In this document: in pieces, positions 1 through 8,063 of the stretch
How positions within the stretch are numbered: the first letter of the stretch is position 1
Layout of the letters: every line of letters begins with the position of its first letter
From: Massalongia carnosa
Taxonomy: Eukaryota
Length of the DNA: 64,000 nucleotides
Direction of reading: 5' to 3'
Assembly (NCBI GenBank): GCA_965645245.1
Contig: OZ287071.1
Span: 1,116,001-1,180,000, forward strand
The notes under the pieces: model-generated
Seen by the model: only the letters and a program-made list of their open reading frames with translations
The model's database searches: none
Told to the model about the DNA's origin: nothing
Translations under genes and position numbers: made by a program

Positions 1-1764
1 TGAAAAATTCATTATCCACCACCATCATGCCTGAATCTTATACTATAATTGAAAATCGTATTGCAAAGGCCATTGACGCCTTAAACTCACGCAAAAACGC
101 CAAACTCAGTGCAATTGCGCGGGAATTTAATGTACCTAGAGGAAGACTTCGTTCTCGGGTCAAAGGGGTGTCATCTAAAACGAAAGTACGAGGACTGCAT
201 AATATACGTCTAAAACCCGATCAGGAGTTGGCCCTACGTCTATATCTTTTGAAACTGGATTCTTTGGACATTCCGGCTCGTCTGCATATAGTGGAAGTGG
301 CTGCATACTCCATTCTTCGTCAAACGGCTTCCGATTCGACGCCTCCTCCTCCTCTCGGCTCGCATTGGATCAAAAGATGGCTAAAACGTCAGTCAGATCT
401 TTACAAGGTTAAACGTAAGCCTCTAGCTGCTGAGCGCAAAAATGCGCATGATTTGGAGTTATTGATGGGGCATTTTGAAAAATATCAAGTAGTGAACAAG
501 TATGGAATAAATCCGAAGGATCAGTGGAATTTTGATGAAACTGGGTTTCGTATTGGTATGGCACGAAGTGATTGGATAATCACAGCAGATTCTTCTCGAC
601 AATCATACAGTTCCGATCCATCAAATCGAGAATCGCTGACAGCGGTGGAGTGTATCAACGGGGCTGGTCAGGACATTCCCCCTTTTTTAATTGTGTCTGG
701 CATCAACATCCTCGCTCCCTGGGTCAAAAACGATCTGAGCAATGATGTAGTCATTTCTACAGCTGAATCGGGCTGTACAAATGACTGGTTGAGTTTGCAA
801 TGGATCAAGCATTTCGACAAACACACTGAAAAAATAAGAGAGGGGGCTTGGAGACTTTTGATAATGGACGGTTATGGATCTCATCATACTCGAGAATTTC
901 TAGAATATTGTGAAACGAAAAACATCATTCCATTCGGATTACCATCTCATACCACAAATCTCTTACAACCATTGGATGTGTGTGTTTTTCAACCTCTGAA
1001 ACACTGGCATTCCGAGGCCGTCAATAAAGCAATTCAGAATGGAGATCAAACCTTTTCCAAAGTCGAATTTCTGAATGCATTTAGCAAGTTTCGATCGCTG
1101 GCTTTTAAACCTTCCACCATACAGTCTGCTTGGAGAAAAACAGGCTTGATTCCGTTCAATCCATGCATTGTTCTCGACAAAGTTCGAGAACTTCTTCCTC
1201 CCCCTCCTCGTGAATCAACTCCGTCTCATACAGCCCCCTATCTGTACAAGAAACCCCTCGAACCGTGCGACAGTTGGCCACAGTAGCCACAGAAATCATG
1301 ACGCATTCAGCTTGCTCGGATGACCTCGTACAAATTGTTAGCAAATTTGTAAAGGGAGCTGTTGCCGAGGTTCGAAAAGGCGATCTTCTGGAACAACGCT
1401 GGGAACAACAAATCAAGGCCCAAACTGCTCGGAAAGCTCGTAAACGAGAGGCCAATAAGATTCTTCATCACGGAGGCGTACTTACTGTTGGTGAGGCCCG
1501 TTCAATGGTTCGTGGTAGGGAGGAGCGGGAGGAGATAAGGGAGAAAGAGCGAAACGTCGCATGGGAAAAGCGTTATTGTACGGCTCTTACCAAAGTGGTT
1601 AGGCAGTCAAAAGCGCATAGAAAGATGCTTATGACTAGAAGCATTAATAGTCACAAAAGATGGATGATGATCATGAAGGAATTGCTGAAAAAAACCCCGA
1701 TGTATGTAGAATAGTTGATTTTTGGCTGTATGGCTGGTCCTGGCTGTATGGCTGGCTAGCACTA
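1..1764 (+). mobile_element. Fot1/pogo-like (Tc1/mariner superfamily) DNA transposon; left end lies outside the window
   Basis: Transposase ORFs 27..1286 and 1265..1714. Candidate right TIR 1723..1762 contains two 15-bp direct repeats (TGGCTGTATGGCTGG at 1723 and 1741) and is followed by TA (1763-1764), the TIR layout typical of Fot1-type elements. Confidence 0.85.
27..1714 (+). pseudogene. DDE_1/CENP-B-type transposase, DD35D, split by a -1 frameshift near 1234-1238
   Basis: N-terminal HTH (AIAREFNVPRGRLRSR) and catalytic motifs NFDETGF, MDGYGSH and QPLDVCVF, with 35 residues between the 2nd and 3rd Asp. The C-terminal part (ETPRTVRQL...GGVLTVGEAR) continues in another frame after a C5 run. 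Confidence 0.88.
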
Positions 1765-2216
1765 AGCGAGTCGACCGAGCGAAAGTGTGGGGCACGAATA
1801 CTCTAGCCAGAGGCGGACAGCGCCCGTGTATGATATGTTTTATCAGCCGCAAAACAGATACGGCACATAGTATACGTACGTACCTGCACCTTTTGGATAA
1901 CGACTCTATTATTACCTATTGTCTCTCTACTCCATACTCCGTACCTTGTGACTAATAGTATGATCGACTCCACGACACCTAATCTATAAAGCCCGTGTCC
2001 GGTTTGAGAATGAACAATGTGTCCTATTAAGAGTCGGATGAATGCCAATTTTCGTTGAGCCAATTGCAGACGGCTTCGTTAACCAATCAATGACTCCGTG
2101 CATCCTCAATGACTGGAGAATTTATCGGCAACATCACACCTCTTCGAGATGCCAATCAACATTTCGTCGTCTCACCGAAAAGTCAATCATCTAGAAGAAT
2201 TTTCTCTGCGTTAGTT

Positions 2217-3361
2217 ATGGTTTACTACATTCGCTTTCTGAAACCTCCCAAATTCTCACTCGTCAGGCACTCACGCCCAATCATCAAAGCCCTTATTACC
2301 ATTACCTCGGATCTTGGTGATAGAATCTATGAAGGCAGTCAATCCCTTTGGATAACATTCATTTCTTCTAATTTGGATAAATCCTCAACATGTACGGGCA
2401 AGGACTTTCTTTGGAAGGCGGGTATGAGAAGCCTTTGGATTGAGATAGATCATGGACAACTTTCACAAGTCACTTGGCCTGCGCAGATGGTTGTTGCTGC
2501 TCACAGCAGACCTCTTATAGACATGTTTTCCTTAGATAACATCCCAGAGTTTGTTGGTGTCTGGAGTGATAGCATTGATACGGACGTTTCGAAAGGGTAC
2601 AGTCCCTGGGTAATGAGAAGACTCGAGCCTATGGAAGGAGTTTCACTGAATATACGCGAAGAGACTGGCGAAAGCATTGCTCGTCATGTATGGTAGGTGT
2701 GGAGAAAGGTCTACACTGCTTGGCTGACTCCGTTAGGGATGGTGGAATCGCACTGGCCGCATGTTTGAGCAGTACGATGCTGCAGCCCCTGCATGATAGA
2801 TCTCTTCAGTCACTGAAAGCGATATTGCACGTTGCTGAGCCCGAAACGCTTAATGTGCTTGAGCTTGGCAGCGGCTGTGGACTTGTGGGCATTGCTTTTG
2901 CTTCTGTACGCCCCAAGTGCCGTATATTATTGACCGATCTACCCGACGCCATGGACATTTTAGACTACAACATATCTCATTCGCAGCTAGCCGTGGGGGC
3001 CGTAGTCGAGAAGTTAGTGCTAGACTGGGACGACAAGCTTCCAACATCAGTTATGCAAGAACAATATGGTCTTATCCTCGTTTCCGAGTGCACCTACAAC
3101 GAGATAACCATTCCTGCTCTAGTCAGGACGTTGTCTGTTCTCATTGCTCAATCACCTGCTGCGTCGGTTGTGGTAGGTACGAAAGTGCGGCACTCTAGCG
3201 AGGCTGTCTTCTTCAACCTGATGTCCGAAATCGGGTTTGTCGTGGTTGAGCAGCTAGCTATCCCTTTACCCGATCTGCAAATGGAATTGAACGAGCAGTG
3301 CTTGGAAAACGTTGACGTCTACGTTTTCTGCAAGCGCTTAGATGCCTCGTCAGCCTGTTGA
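2217..3361 (+). CDS. Putative protein-lysine methyltransferase (METTL21/EFM-like, Methyltransf_16 family); 2 exons, intron 2693..2736
   Basis: Start MVYYIRFLKPP. Splicing restores EETGESIARHVW-DGG. SAM motif VLELGSGCGLVG, plus LTDLP and LDW motifs. Confidence 0.85.
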
Positions 3362-4113
3362 TAAGCCGGAGAAATCCAGGAGGAGCAGCGCTGAGGTCGA
3401 TAGAATGGAGATTACGGCAGGGAGTATGGTACGGGGTGTTTGGTTGGCAACGCGTATATATGATGCCTGATGATGCCTTCTTATCCCAGTGGCCCATTTG
3501 AGCGAGTGGCTGCGAATGAGCGGGACATCCTCAGGATCACACGATTACCAGGCAGTTTGCCCTACAGGCCGAGGACATAGATGCAAAGACAAGAGACCTT
3601 TCCAATGTTCGTTCATGCATGCCATGCAGCTACCATGCATGCATCTGGCTTGCGATGAGGTTTGTGATTGGATGCGTACCTACTCGATGAGCTGTACGGA
3701 GTTCACTAAGAATGTTCGGGATGCTAAGAATGAACCAAGTCGGTGAACAAGAGGGCTAGCTAATGTATCCAGGCGTGAGTGGTTTAGAAGAGAGTTTACT
3801 TACTCCGTAGCTTCCTTGCATTTGACTCTGGACAGAGTCACACACTGATGCCTATTCCGTATTCTGTATAATCCGAGTTTGTAATTCAGATTAACATAGC
3901 CGATTATGTCATGAATCTTGTGGGCGGTGTAAAAAAGTCTAAAAATGCACCCACAAAAGAATGATCCAGCAAACATTGGATAATTTATATTCTCTTCTCT
4001 GGTGCCATTTCCACTTGACTTTCACTTGACTTTCACTCCAATACATCTTGCATTCCTATCCAAGCCTGTATCTTTCATGAAACTCTCGCACTCTTAAAAT
4101 CCGCTACTCAAAG

Positions 4114-4218
4114 ACGGCTTACCCAGCCCTTTCCCAATTCATCCTTCGAGATCCCTCCACACGCCCATATCCAGATATCCTTAATAACCTCCCCCCTCCT
4201 GCCACGGTCCCCGCATAG
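4114..4218 (+). promoter_or_regulatory. ACG-initiated upstream ORF (uCC-like, 34 codons) in the ODC 5' leader
   Basis: CAAAG-ACG-G is a near-cognate start in strong context (-3 A, +4 G). It reads (M)AYPALSQFILRDPSTRPYPDILNNLPPPATVPA* and lies about 210 nt upstream of the ODC AUG. Confidence 0.7.
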
Positions 4219-4428
4219 GCCATTTGTCTTATTTGATATCCTACTCAGCGCTCACTTCCCGTCGTCAGGTCCTCATCTGCCGCATAGGTTGTCCTTACGG
4301 GTTCTTCCTCTTCTCGAAGAGGAAGGGTCGAGAAGGCCTCGTGCCATAAGTCTCGGGGCGGATATATTCAGGCCTCCCTAACATAAACTTCTGTGAACGT
4401 TATCAAATCTTTCAAGTCATAAACTTGT

Positions 4429-5816
4429 ATGTCGATGGCACCATCGGCGACTAATATCGAACAATCATATGTACAGCCATATCAAAAAGAATACGGAACC
4501 GCTATCCAGGAAATTGCCCCTTTGAGTACGAATGGCTTCGGATATATTCGTAACGGAACGGATATTGGGAGAGCTCTGGTCAAGAACATCTTGAAGCAGC
4601 GAGTAGAGAGCATCGATACCAATGCTTGTGAAGCAGGCCAGGAAGATGCATTCTTCGTCGCTGATATGGGGGAGGTTTATCGCCAGCATTTGCGCTGGAA
4701 GCTAAAATTGAGACGAGTAAAGCCCCATTATGGTAAGTATTAGTCCGGAGCTATGGTGAACAAGTCTGACGGTGCAAAGCTGTGAAATGTAATCCTGATC
4801 CGGAAGTTCTCCGGTTACTTGCAGCGCTTGATACGGGCTTCGACTGCGCATCTAAGACTGAGATCGAGCAAGTGCTGGCGATTGGCGTTGATCCGTCCAG
4901 GGTTATCTATGCCCAACCGTGCAAGACCAAATCATACATCCGTTACGCTGCTCAGCAAGGGGTGAAGCAGATGACTTTTGACAACGCAGATGAGCTGTAT
5001 AAGACCAAGGCCTTATTTCCAGATGCCGAGCTTTTCTTAAGGATCTTGACAGACGACTCCACCAGTTCATGCAGGCTGAGTCTGAAATTTGGTGCTTCAC
5101 TTGACGGAACAAAGGAGCTTTTGCTATTAGCCAAGGCTTTGGACCTTAACGTTGTCGGAGTCAGCTTCCATGTAGGATCTGGCGCATCTGATCCACAAGC
5201 TTTTGCCAAAGCTGTGCAAGACTCGCGGATTGTTTTCGATCAAGCCGAAGAGATTGGGTTTAAGATGAAGACGTTGGATGTAGGCGGAGGTTTCTCCGGT
5301 GATCTGTTTGAGGAGATGGCCCATGTCCTTAGCGAGGCCCTTGACGATTACTTTCCACCCAGCGTTCGCATCATAGGAGAACCAGGCCGATACTACGTCG
5401 CCTCGGCTTTCACCCTTGCTTGTAACATAATTGCTCGCCGCGACATTCAAGATCCCGTCACACGCCTGACCTCCTACATGCTGTACATCAATGACGGCGT
5501 CTATGGAAATTTCTCCAACATCATCTTCGATCATCAGAACCCCTTCCCGTGCGTGCTGAGTAGCCCTCGCGATGGAGACGACTTGTCCACCCGAGCCACG
5601 GACTACTCTATCTGGGGCCCTTCCTGCGACGGCATCGACCGCATCTCGGAGCATTGCATATTACGTGGCGTCTTGGACGTAGGTGACTGGTTATACTTTG
5701 AGGAAATGGGAGCTTATACCAAATGCTCTGCTACGAGGTTCAACGGCTTCACCAACAACCACGACGTCATTTATATTTCGAGCGAGCCAGGAGCATCGGC
5801 TTTGCTCAATTACTAA
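4429..5816 (+). CDS. SPE1: Ornithine decarboxylase; intron 4733..4779
   Basis: Spliced PLP-lysine motif PHYAVKCN, plus FDCAS, SFHVGSG, LDVGGGF, EPGRY, WGPSCDG and MGAYT. Confidence 0.97.
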
Positions 5817-6902
5817 CTTTATGAATCATGTCGAAATGTAGCGATGAACTGGGTATTTCTTGTGTTCAGCCCAGATATTTTTTTCTTTCAGTCAAGTAAT
5901 AGAGCAGAGGTGTTTTTAGACAGGGAGCTTTAGGTTAGAACAGGGTTTTTTCTCTTGCATTTGCATTGGGTTAGGCTAGCCTTGCTATTTTTTGTACAAT
6001 AAACCATGGTTCCTTCTCTGCACATAGGTTAGAAGCTTTAGGGAGCTTTCGAGAATAAAACGTACATACCCTCGAGCTTGTTTTCACTATGCTCATTTCG
6101 CAAGCTTGTTTCCTTGCTTCAAGCACACGGATGCGAATAGATCCCCTTCAATCGCCAATTGCTCCTATCCTTCACTTTTAAACCCGACAACTAGCTGTGC
6201 AGTTTGCATCCATGTACGTTCTTTCCTCCTCCCCAAACTTGACTTCCCTTCACCAGAACAATCCATGTTCAACCTTTCATCCGGCGTTTTTGCTCCTCTT
6301 CATCTCCTTCCCGTCCACCCCAAGTTCTAAACCTTTCAACATCCATCTCTCCTCTCCCTCTCCATCCACGCTATTTTATATAAATGTTGGGGGCGAGGAC
6401 AAGGAAATACGCAGGCAGGTATGGATAGGATAAAAGAATGGATGGAATTGCAAGGGTAATGCGAGAAATGGAAGAATTAGAGGGAGATAGGAGGAAGGGA
6501 GAGACTTTGTTTCATCAGATTTGTCTGCGTCTTTATCTTTTGATTATTTTTTTCCATTAGGAGAGGAGACGACTGGATACGAAAGGAGGAAGAAAGAAAC
6601 AGACCTGGGCTTCATACCCCGGGAAAGGGGGGGTGACGAAGGAGGGTAGCATGGAAACCGTAGAGGTGGAAGGGGATTTTAATATAGACGTTTTTATGAA
6701 TCCGAAAAGGATATAGCTATGTGAATATGATATCTGGTGGCTTGAAAAACATTTGCACACCTGGATTCTCATACAACTTAACAAATTTCTGCTTGTATTA
6801 ATTTATCCAAGAAAGAGATGGGAAACACATCGAAAACACAAATCTCCCACACCCCACTCATTCAAAACGCCCGCTAAAAGCAAACCCTCCTCCGCCAATA
6901 TC

Positions 6903-8063
6903 TCATAATCTCCCCCCACCCGTGGCTTTCGGATGAATCCGAGCAGGACTCCCTAAATATGGTTCCCCAGGCTTGAACCCCGCGTGGGCCATCATGTCGG
7001 TGAAGGTGGTTGGAGGTCTCCTGAACACTTCACTCGGAGGCGAGTAAATCTTGATGCTCTCCATGCTGGGTTCTTTGCGCATCTCTGGCGTGCGCACAGG
7101 GGTTTTGACGCTCCTTCCAACCCCATCCGCGTTCTTGATCGTGGGCGAGCGCGAGAAAAGTGACTTAACCGCTGCTATTGAGCTACGTTTTTGTTGCTGC
7201 CCCTGCTGCTTAGATCTAGACTCATGCCGCAGGAAATCGGTGCGGAAGGCGTTGTTTTGAGGTTGGTAAATGGGATCTGAGACTGTGGCTGCGACGCTGC
7301 CGAAGTCGCTGCTTTCGCGTTTGTTCGTAGAGCGTTGGCGACGACCAATGCAGATGATTGCAATGATTGTAAGGAGGATACCAAGGAGGAGGCCCGGAAA
7401 GAATCCTGCAAGGATGGCGATGGCGGGAAATCTGTCGCACTGCGCAACAACGGTTCCGTTTTTGACGGCTGCTTGGGTCGGGGTGCTTTTGGCTATGGTG
7501 AATGTTTGAGTAGAGCTCTTGGATGACGAAGATAACGATGAAGATAAGGTTGAAGATGGAAGCTTACTTGTGGTTGAGAAGGTAGTCTGTGAGGATGAGG
7601 TAGATGGCTTGGACGTCGTAGATGTAGATGCACTTGAAGAGGTGCTTGCCTTCATGATACACTGCTTGTTTTGGCACGAGAAGCCTTTCGGACAGCAAGC
7701 GCTCCCGCAAGTCTCAAGCGGTTCTTGTAAATCGATGCTATGCAACTCAGCTTCGGGATGTAGCGTGGCATTCTGGAACGTTATGTCGCAGAGGATGGGC
7801 GCGATGGTGTTGCAGTCTCCCGAGGGGCAACACACCACTGAGGCGGCATTATTAAATACTACACACTGAGAGCCTGAAGGACAGCAGAAGCTGGAGGGTA
7901 GTCCTGCTTGGGTGCAAGGTAAATAACCTGAGGTGCTGCAAGAATTCGCAGCTCGAGGAAGAAGAGCTATTGTGTCAACAGCTCTCGAGAGTGCCGTCGC
8001 GGACGGAACTATAAATGATATTAGGCACGCGGCGGTGAGTTGAAGCAAAGTTATTTTGCCCAT
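6903..8063 (-). CDS. Single-pass membrane protein: signal peptide, Cys-rich domain, Ser/Thr stalk, TM helix, cytoplasmic tail (Mid2/WSC-like architecture)
   Basis: MGKITLLQLTAACLISFIVPSATA signal-like start, repeated CCP motifs, S/T-rich tract, hydrophobic AIAILAGFFPGLLLGILLTIIAIICI followed by basic GRRQR. Confidence 0.8.
   Translation of the reverse strand: MGKITLLQLTAACLISFIVPSATALSRAVDTIALLPRAANSCSTSGYLPCTQAGLPSSFCCPSGSQCVVFNNAASVVCCPSGDCNTIAPILCDITFQNATLHPEAELHSIDLQEPLETCGSACCPKGFSCQNKQCIMKASTSSSASTSTTSKPSTSSSQTTFSTTSKLPSSTLSSSLSSSSKSSTQTFTIAKSTPTQAAVKNGTVVAQCDRFPAIAILAGFFPGLLLGILLTIIAIICIGRRQRSTNKRESSDFGSVAATVSDPIYQPQNNAFRTDFLRHESRSKQQGQQQKRSSIAAVKSLFSRSPTIKNADGVGRSVKTPVRTPEMRKEPSMESIKIYSPPSEVFRRPPTTFTDMMAHAGFKPGEPYLGSPARIHPKATGGGRL

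Follow-up and report, generated by a model that had tools for sequence, protein, structure and literature searches.

Two overlapping non-AUG upstream reading frames under selection in the ornithine decarboxylase leader of filamentous ascomycetes

The leader of the ornithine decarboxylase (ODC) gene in the window, the 64-kb stretch of DNA analyzed here, carries two overlapping upstream open reading frames, which we call uORF-A and uORF-B. Judged by comparison with related leaders, both frames are under selection, both begin at conserved non-AUG starts, and AUG codons have been purged from the region that they occupy. We consider it probable that the pair brings about polyamine-sensitive repression of ODC. 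This functional reading draws on known systems with similar motifs, and it is by analogy with them that we propose translation of the frames, ribosome stalling, polyamine sensing, and a possible relay from one frame to the other.

The gene downstream of both uORFs was identified as ODC through the Pfam families PF02784 and PF00278, with one match in G000. Counted from the conserved AUG, exon 1 spans positions 4435 to 4732 and exon 2 spans 4780 to 5816 on the forward strand (+), which also bears all leader features described below. Together they encode a 444-aa protein in which the motifs that we take to hold the PLP lysine and the active-site cysteine of ODC are intact. The 47-nt intron between the exons (4733 to 4779) has the form GT..CTGAC..AG, and its junction is missing in spliced contigs from relatives. 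Pfam searches gave no match for uORF-A or for ODC exon 1, and an antizyme Pfam search of G000 likewise gave no match, as did its control.

Other genes flank this locus. A lysine methyltransferase gene at 2109 to 3361 (+), with Methyltransf_16 matched on 2690 to 3358, ends about 750 nt before the ACG start of uORF-A and so bounds the ODC promoter. Convergent with ODC, positions 6903 to 8063 (−) encode a 386-aa Ser/Thr-rich, Cys-containing protein without a Pfam match that includes a hydrophobic stretch. Within 27 to 1714 (+), a transposase-like ORF (DDE_1, HTH_Tnp_Tc5) ends at 1286 and is followed directly by a 138-aa ORF.

To compare leaders, homologs of ODC exon 1 were collected (358 matches, 120 listed), and 101 were aligned with the query. 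Metagenome contigs scanned with the exon 1 homologs yielded 156 relatives, of which the best 80 were analyzed. Statistics were computed on the 66 leaders of at least 300 nt, the window included, which reduce to 44 at 95% identity; 40 of these carry the uORF-A motif. The set is well diverged, because identity to the window in ODC exon 2 is 66 to 84% and synonymous differences amount to 0.6 to 0.7. Judged by these relatives, the window presumably belongs to Pezizomycotina.

An earlier note on this DNA had described an ACG-initiated frame, and its coordinates and initiation context proved accurate for what is now uORF-A (4114 to 4218). The ACG at 4114 to 4116 stands in the context AAG-ACG-G and opens 34 sense codons with the C-terminus ...LNNLPPPATVPA, followed by TAG at 4216 to 4218. 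In the window this frame is open from 4081, and ATC at 4099 is the one further near-cognate codon in frame that has a purine at −3. An ORF of 25 to 60 codons that begins with RnnACGG and has PPP within its last ten codons occurs in the 64 kb, on both strands, only as uORF-A. When the bases of the leader were shuffled 5000 times, a fraction of 0.0004 of the shuffles gave such an ORF, although the criteria for both of these tests were set post hoc and the conservation data carry more weight.

The N-x-L/I-P-P-P motif of uORF-A is present in 40 of the 44 nonredundant leaders and in 61 of the 68 loci whose length allows it to be seen. At 57 of 59 testable loci, its ACG start is flanked by a purine at −3 and G at +4, and 38 of the 40 leaders keep this strong context, whereas other Thr codons within uORF-A are mixed (ACG in 15 of 68). 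The N-N-L-P-P-P block occupies 4183 to 4200 in the window, with PPP at 4192 to 4200, and is a putative site of eIF5A-dependent elongation stalling. Its N and three prolines are invariant in alignment A4, and each proline position shows all four Pro codons. Where the two uORFs overlap, pN/pS is 0.47 in frame A, 1.21 in frame B, and 1.31 in the third frame. The last 12 codons of uORF-A up to PPP give 0.39 (ODC control, 0.14), and the nine codons ahead of the uORF-B start are weakly constrained (0.82).

The earlier note had proposed looking for codon-level conservation in orthologous leaders, and such conservation is found: in addition to the strong context of the ACG, pN/pS in uORF-A is 0.39 to 0.47 versus 1.1 to 1.2 in the overlapping frame and 0.9 to 2.5 across other frames. 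These ratios rule out that the conservation of frame A is a by-product of frame B. On this pattern of substitutions, uORF-A is real and conserved, with selection on the amino acids of its N-N-L/I-P-P-P block. The proline motif had also been likened to C-terminal stall motifs, but a fixed C-terminus is not what relatives show. PPP lies at most 7 codons from the stop in 32 of 40 leaders, and the tail that follows it ranges from 0 to 33 codons, ends in any of the three stop codons, and is not conserved. Because this tail varies, the PPP of uORF-A is better read as an elongation-type signal than as part of a fixed C-terminus. The whole of uORF-A measures 27 to 62 codons across leaders, short of the roughly 100 codons of the published upstream conserved coding region (uCC).

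Absent from the earlier note is a second frame that overlaps uORF-A in the +1 register. In the window, uORF-B (4151 to 4381) is ATC-initiated, has 76 codons, and ends with Pro-Pro-TAA; it forms part of an AUG-less stop-to-stop frame of 120 codons at 4019 to 4381. The overlap of the two uORFs is 68 nt. Among loci with both motifs, the offset from A to B is +1 in 60 of 61, and the distance from the ACG to the end of the Pro-Pro-stop is 250 to 305 nt. The Pro-Pro-TAA end (4373 to 4381), a putative termination stall, sits 47 nt before the ATG at 4429 in the window. A leader frame with this ending is present in 76 of the 80 loci, always with TAA, and the remaining four loci are too short to show the end.

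The start of uORF-B falls in an alignment column located 31 to 43 nt past the ACG (37 nt in the window, where the ATC at 4151 to 4153 has G at −3). In the 40 leaders this column holds TTG (24), ATC (10), ATT (2), CTG (2), ACG (1), or GTG (1) and never ATG, with A at −3 in 37 and a purine at −3 in 38. Any other +1 column holds a near-cognate codon in at most 15 of 40. When third bases were permuted in 100,000 trials, the maximum reached was 34 of 40 compared to 40 of 40 in the real rows, which are related to one another. If each of ten codon classes is counted once, the frame-A synonym that creates a near-cognate B start is always the one used (joint 10^-5.2). This synonymous-choice test rules out that frame A creates the start column as a side effect. 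The ATH class of B start requires at least three changes on an ODC tree that comprises 38 of the 44 rows, six being omitted for short exon 2 and one of those kept having a branch of suspicious length.

The reading frame that follows this column is also protected. Ahead of the start column, 17 frame-B stops are seen versus 15.1 expected; from the column to PPP, none is seen versus 14.1 expected. The uORF-A Leu before Asn is encoded exclusively by CTC or CTT (18 of 18), the two that do not produce a +1 stop, and the Leu before PPP uses five different codons. From the start column to the stop, uORF-B is open in 39 of 40 leaders, and in the 40th (L044) after removal of an intron. Between the ACG and the Pro-Pro-stop, only 3 AUG codons occur in 10,895 nt compared to 106 expected, and all 3 lie in the L044 intron. 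The pN/pS ratio of uORF-B is 0.39 over the last 7 codons and 0.61 to 0.66 in the middle. Taken as evidence from leader comparison, these patterns indicate that uORF-B has its own non-AUG start and is under selection.

The L044 intron is 55 nt long and of canonical GT..CTGAC..AG form, and frame B is continuous once it is removed. P0181, a Parastagonospora gene model at NCBI, reads like such a uORF-B with the intron taken out.

The earlier note regarded uORF-A alone as the uCC of this leader. That assignment is not supported as it was put: it is uORF-B that ends in Pro-Pro-stop and that, at 71 to 86 codons from the inferred start, nears the published length of about 100, and uORF-B best matches the published Pezizomycotina uCC. 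The uORF-A motif is missing and uORF-B is kept in 7 of the 68 long-enough loci (4 of the 44 nonredundant leaders plus L080), namely L067, L013, L034, L068 to L070, and L080. Thus, uORF-A is dispensable, because some leaders without it keep uORF-B and because L067 fuses the ACG frame with the Pro-Pro-stop. The fused frame in L067, with its ACG in frame with the Pro-Pro-stop, has 85 codons. In L034 and L068, a Met-Asn-stop mini ORF is found in place of uORF-A, and the ODC junction is intronless.

An independent check was made with deposited proteins. A profile built from 37 uORF-B peptides matched 76 protein representatives, 2 of which come from analyzed loci; 72 of the 76 end in PP, and an A motif in frame with B is seen in none. 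Among the 18 matches that were looked up, those named come from Aspergillus varians, Thermomyces, Dothidotthia, Parastagonospora, Thermothelomyces, Colletotrichum, Metarhizium, Pyricularia, and Leptodontidium, and the named matches span four classes. We retained 64 proteins of at least 88 aa that end in PP, lie outside the analyzed loci, and have distinct ends. With the B start column masked, L, I, V, or T is present there in 52 of the 64. After K or N the count is 42 of 43, versus 43 of 169 in a control elsewhere, in a test where the alignment is guided by the K column and covers residues rather than codons.

Some of these proteins also preserve a +1 shadow of the A motif, which is found in 19 of 64 by a strict pattern and in 34 of 64 by a loose one (shuffle means of 0.2 and 1.6). 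Even by the loose pattern it is missing in 30 of 64, all compared as bare protein sequences. Matches from Aspergillus, Thermomyces, and Dothidotthia show the shadow strictly and those from Colletotrichum and Metarhizium loosely, and neither pattern found it in the Leptodontidium, Thermothelomyces, or Pyricularia matches. Word-index protein searches returned 9 candidates for the stop-to-stop frame B, of which none passed, and 571 candidates for the uORF-B alignment, with a single match that is the frame of L052 itself. Several uORF-B frames are deposited as “hypothetical proteins” (P0124, P0126, P0135, P0138, P0159, P0169, P0173, and P0194), several of them partial and one named ornithine decarboxylase. 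These entries are probably mis-started gene models.

Contigs from relatives place the ACG within the ODC mRNA leader of those relatives, as the earlier note had anticipated for the window. The ODC intron is missing from nine short contigs, which are of a spliced, mRNA type, and five of the nine reach the ACG and extend 50 to 224 nt further upstream with no AUG there. Two contigs, L032 and L033, are most likely transcripts because they match the genomic locus L036 apart from 51 gap positions, and both frames lie at the genomic offset in them. Three of the five contigs that reach the ACG have a nearest genomic locus that is just 71 to 89% identical, and these may be intronless DNA. For the window itself, four contig runs over 3300 to 6300 yielded no transcript ends.

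At the other end of the leader, the AUG at 4429 had been taken as the first main start and its context as weak. The context is indeed weak, but it is the following ATG, at 4435, that is conserved as the ODC start. A weak main AUG was rejected as a general feature, since in 35 of 44 leaders the conserved ODC AUG has a good context, with G at −3. A tandem in-frame AUG-NNN-AUG at the ODC start, as at 4429 and 4435 in the window, occurs in 10 of the 44 leaders.

Two further elements lie within uORF-B. The first is a near-invariant block at 4277 to 4287 (L-P-H-R/K/S codons), present in all 44 leaders, whose constraint includes synonymous sites: pS is 0.13 compared to 0.6 to 0.74 elsewhere. In every case this block forms a stop in frame A. 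Per-locus folds gave no consistent pairing partner for it, and its pattern is not enriched in G000 (10 matches versus 34 for the reversed pattern). In budding yeast the codon pair CUG-CCG is inhibitory, which provides a possible lead for this block. The second element is a predicted hairpin at 4300 to 4329, located 17 nt past the His codon of the block, that we regard as plausible rather than proven. Relative to synonymous recoding, its median z is −2.1, with 34 of 43 leaders below −1.5 and the window at −1.4, and 90.7% of cells are paired compared to 88.1% in shuffles. Its covariation score does not exceed that of shuffles (244 of 500), and RNAalifold gave no consensus. An Rfam search over 3700 to 4600 yielded 0 matches at E 1, and the leader as a whole folds no better than shuffles (z of 0.06 and 0.38).

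Upstream of the ACG, 27 of 40 leaders have a 7- to 10-bp hairpin at a distance of about 10 to 35 nt (z below −1.5 against base shuffles). Examples are L002, L011, L020, L032, L054, and L081; the hairpin is absent from the window, L012, L019, and L022. Specific to the window are two AUG ORFs (+) upstream of the ACG, one of 22 codons (3961 to 4029) and one of 6 codons (4077 to 4097), the latter stopping 17 nt before the ACG, where many relatives have the hairpin. These two ORFs may lie within the leader. If they are part of the transcript, they could steer reinitiating ribosomes past both weak starts.

How might the two frames control ODC? When polyamines are low, most scanning 43S complexes would pass over the two weak starts and go on to the ODC AUG. 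When polyamines are high, eIF5A would be inhibited, a ribosome started at the ACG would stall at PPP, and scanning complexes would queue behind it. The distance to the first Pro is 41 nt from the B start in 36 of 40 leaders (38 to 44 in all) and 72 to 81 nt from the ACG. With typical ribosome footprint sizes, the B start would lie near the first queue position and the ACG near the second, so that a stall at PPP would be expected to raise initiation at both. Ribosomes diverted into uORF-B would translate 71 to 86 codons, may pause at the invariant block and hairpin, and would stall at the Pro-Pro-stop, 44 to 194 nt before the ODC AUG, such that scanning is blocked and ODC is repressed. The 41-nt spacing of the B start may be a mere result of peptide conservation free of indels.

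We tentatively speculate that the ODC leaders of filamentous ascomycetes contain an undescribed two-stage, cross-frame queuing relay, wherein a PPP stall sensitive to polyamines and eIF5A is so spaced that it switches on the out-of-frame uORF-B. Such a relay would operate with a B start that drifts among six near-cognate codons and with a nucleotide-level pause element combined with the Pro-Pro-stop, and its response would be steeper than that from a single uCC. If this proposal is true, ribosome queuing would extend from the self-reinforcement of one uORF to the activation of a second frame, and the relay would account for the translational part of the repression in the Neurospora ODC leader that responds to polyamine depletion.

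A less likely explanation, although one that deserves some weight, is that both uORFs are translated and act either as a constitutive damper or in response to some other cue, such as start stringency set by eIF1 and eIF5, hypusination state, or mRNA decay; we extend the same low expectation to polyamine control of ODC occurring mainly at the mRNA level or via antizyme. All the evidence gathered here is conservation, which in itself says nothing about polyamines, and the nucleotide-level constraint on the invariant block (pS 0.13) resembles that on a DNA- or RNA-binding site. In Neurospora crassa, as described in the available part of PMC2811004, a leader region that contains the uCC represses ODC, and of an approximately 30-fold repression just approximately 3-fold was translational. 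However, polyamine depletion partly relieves this translational component (PMC2811004), and proline motifs of the same type, PPW in AZIN1 and PS-stop in HOL1, are tested polyamine sensors according to the accessible text of PMC9082881 and PMC11550727. These observations favor polyamine-sensitive repression by the pair.

The fixed relationship of the two frames brings to mind a +1 ribosomal frameshift, in which a ribosome that starts at the ACG slips near PPP, as in antizyme, and ends at the Pro-Pro-stop with an 83- to 100-codon product. The +1 offset in 60 of 61 loci, the 250 to 305 nt from the ACG to the end of the Pro-Pro-stop, which is near the published 100 codons, and the 85-codon ACG frame of L067 would all fit. 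Nevertheless, we find this quite improbable given the character of the supposed slip region, where no shift site is conserved: an in-frame CCC-C is present in just 21 of 40 leaders, PPP wobbles freely, and the tail and stop vary. A slip would also have no need of the near-cognate start that frame B possesses in 40 of 40 leaders or of an open frame B upstream of PPP (0 stops versus 14.1 expected), and 0 of the 76 independent proteins have the A motif in frame with B.

The product of uORF-B could be what matters, as a trans-acting microprotein directed, for example, at ODC or antizyme, with uORF-A just tuning its synthesis. Peptide selection does reach the middle of uORF-B, 35 to 45 residues from the end (pN/pS 0.66). 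This selection is nonetheless weak beside that on ODC (0.14), the invariant residues are limited to the terminal prolines and the nucleotide-level block, and AUG is never used at the B start, which argues against a need for the product; we rate the idea as very improbable. Finally, there is scarcely any chance that a leader intron joins A and B into a single uCC: introns are frequent in fungal leaders and L044 has one within uORF-B, but motif spacing changes in steps of three only, and L032 and L033, which lack the ODC intron, keep both frames at the same offset as genomic L036, so that such an intron is excluded in this one relative by its mRNA-type contigs.

The uCC family is known, and the two-frame layout is probably a new variant of it. 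Our literature search, whose reach did not include the primary papers of 2008 and 2018, found no account of two uCCs in fungal ODC leaders. The Pezizomycotina ODC uCC is reportedly due to Ivanov, Loughran, and Atkins (2008), and queuing at the AZIN1 uCC is said to have been described by Ivanov et al. (2018). Because the review PMC2811004, in its available portion, lists both UUG and ACG starts, we place the chance that both frames are already in the primary 2008 paper at somewhat less than even. If they are, the present locus becomes a well-supported additional member. For both frames, exact and testable starts and stall sites are given here, and a natural series of near-cognate swaps is available along with lineages in which uORF-A has been lost or fused.

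Among known systems, the closest is the Pezizomycotina ODC uCC itself. The accessible sections of PMC2811004 describe it as a region of about 100 codons with conservation concentrated at its end, adjacent prolines close to the C-terminus, and AUU, UUG, or ACG as putative starts, and state that its role in fungi was never tested directly and that the start codon is putative. The frames reported here share with it the ODC leader, a non-AUG start, two adjacent prolines, and end-weighted conservation; a position in the 5′ leader (in relatives), codon conservation, a non-AUG start, and adjacent prolines are all found. In contrast to the one uCC per leader in that part of the review, there are two overlapping frames here (27 to 62 and 71 to 86 codons), and each frame has a start and a proline motif to itself.

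A polyamine-pathway leader with two conserved uORFs that overlap is likewise known from plant AdoMetDC, with its tiny/small pair, as outlined in the same portion of PMC2811004. Those uORFs are AUG-initiated with a one-base overlap, and the first shields ribosomes from the second, whereas here both starts are non-AUG, the overlap is 68 nt, and both frames have proline motifs. Conserved near-cognate starts (ACG, AUU, and CUG) that are swapped among Pezizomycotina also occur in N. crassa cpc-1, and these codons initiate in N. crassa extracts (available text of PMC5487733). In cpc-1 they extend the main ORF in frame, and here they appear to open separate uORFs of an inhibitory type.

The proposed stalls have counterparts as well. 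The PS-stop of the Saccharomyces cerevisiae HOL1 uORF undergoes polyamine-dependent termination stalling, as reported in the available part of PMC11550727, and the Pro-Pro-stop of uORF-B may by analogy act in the same manner; HOL1 has a single uORF and encodes a transporter, compared to two uORFs before ODC. In vertebrate AZIN1, when polyamines are high, a stall at PPW increases, through eIF5A, initiation at an AUU some 30 codons upstream (accessible text of PMC9082881). As in AZIN1, the weak start of uORF-A precedes an internal di- or triproline, by 24 to 27 codons compared to about 30, with AUU and PPW in AZIN1 corresponding to ACG and PPP in uORF-A (PMC9082881 and PMC11550727, both as available in part), and eIF5A-dependent queuing is likely in both. 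What sets the present leaders apart from AZIN1 is that a second, out-of-frame uORF starts in the queue zone and that the main ORF encodes the enzyme itself.
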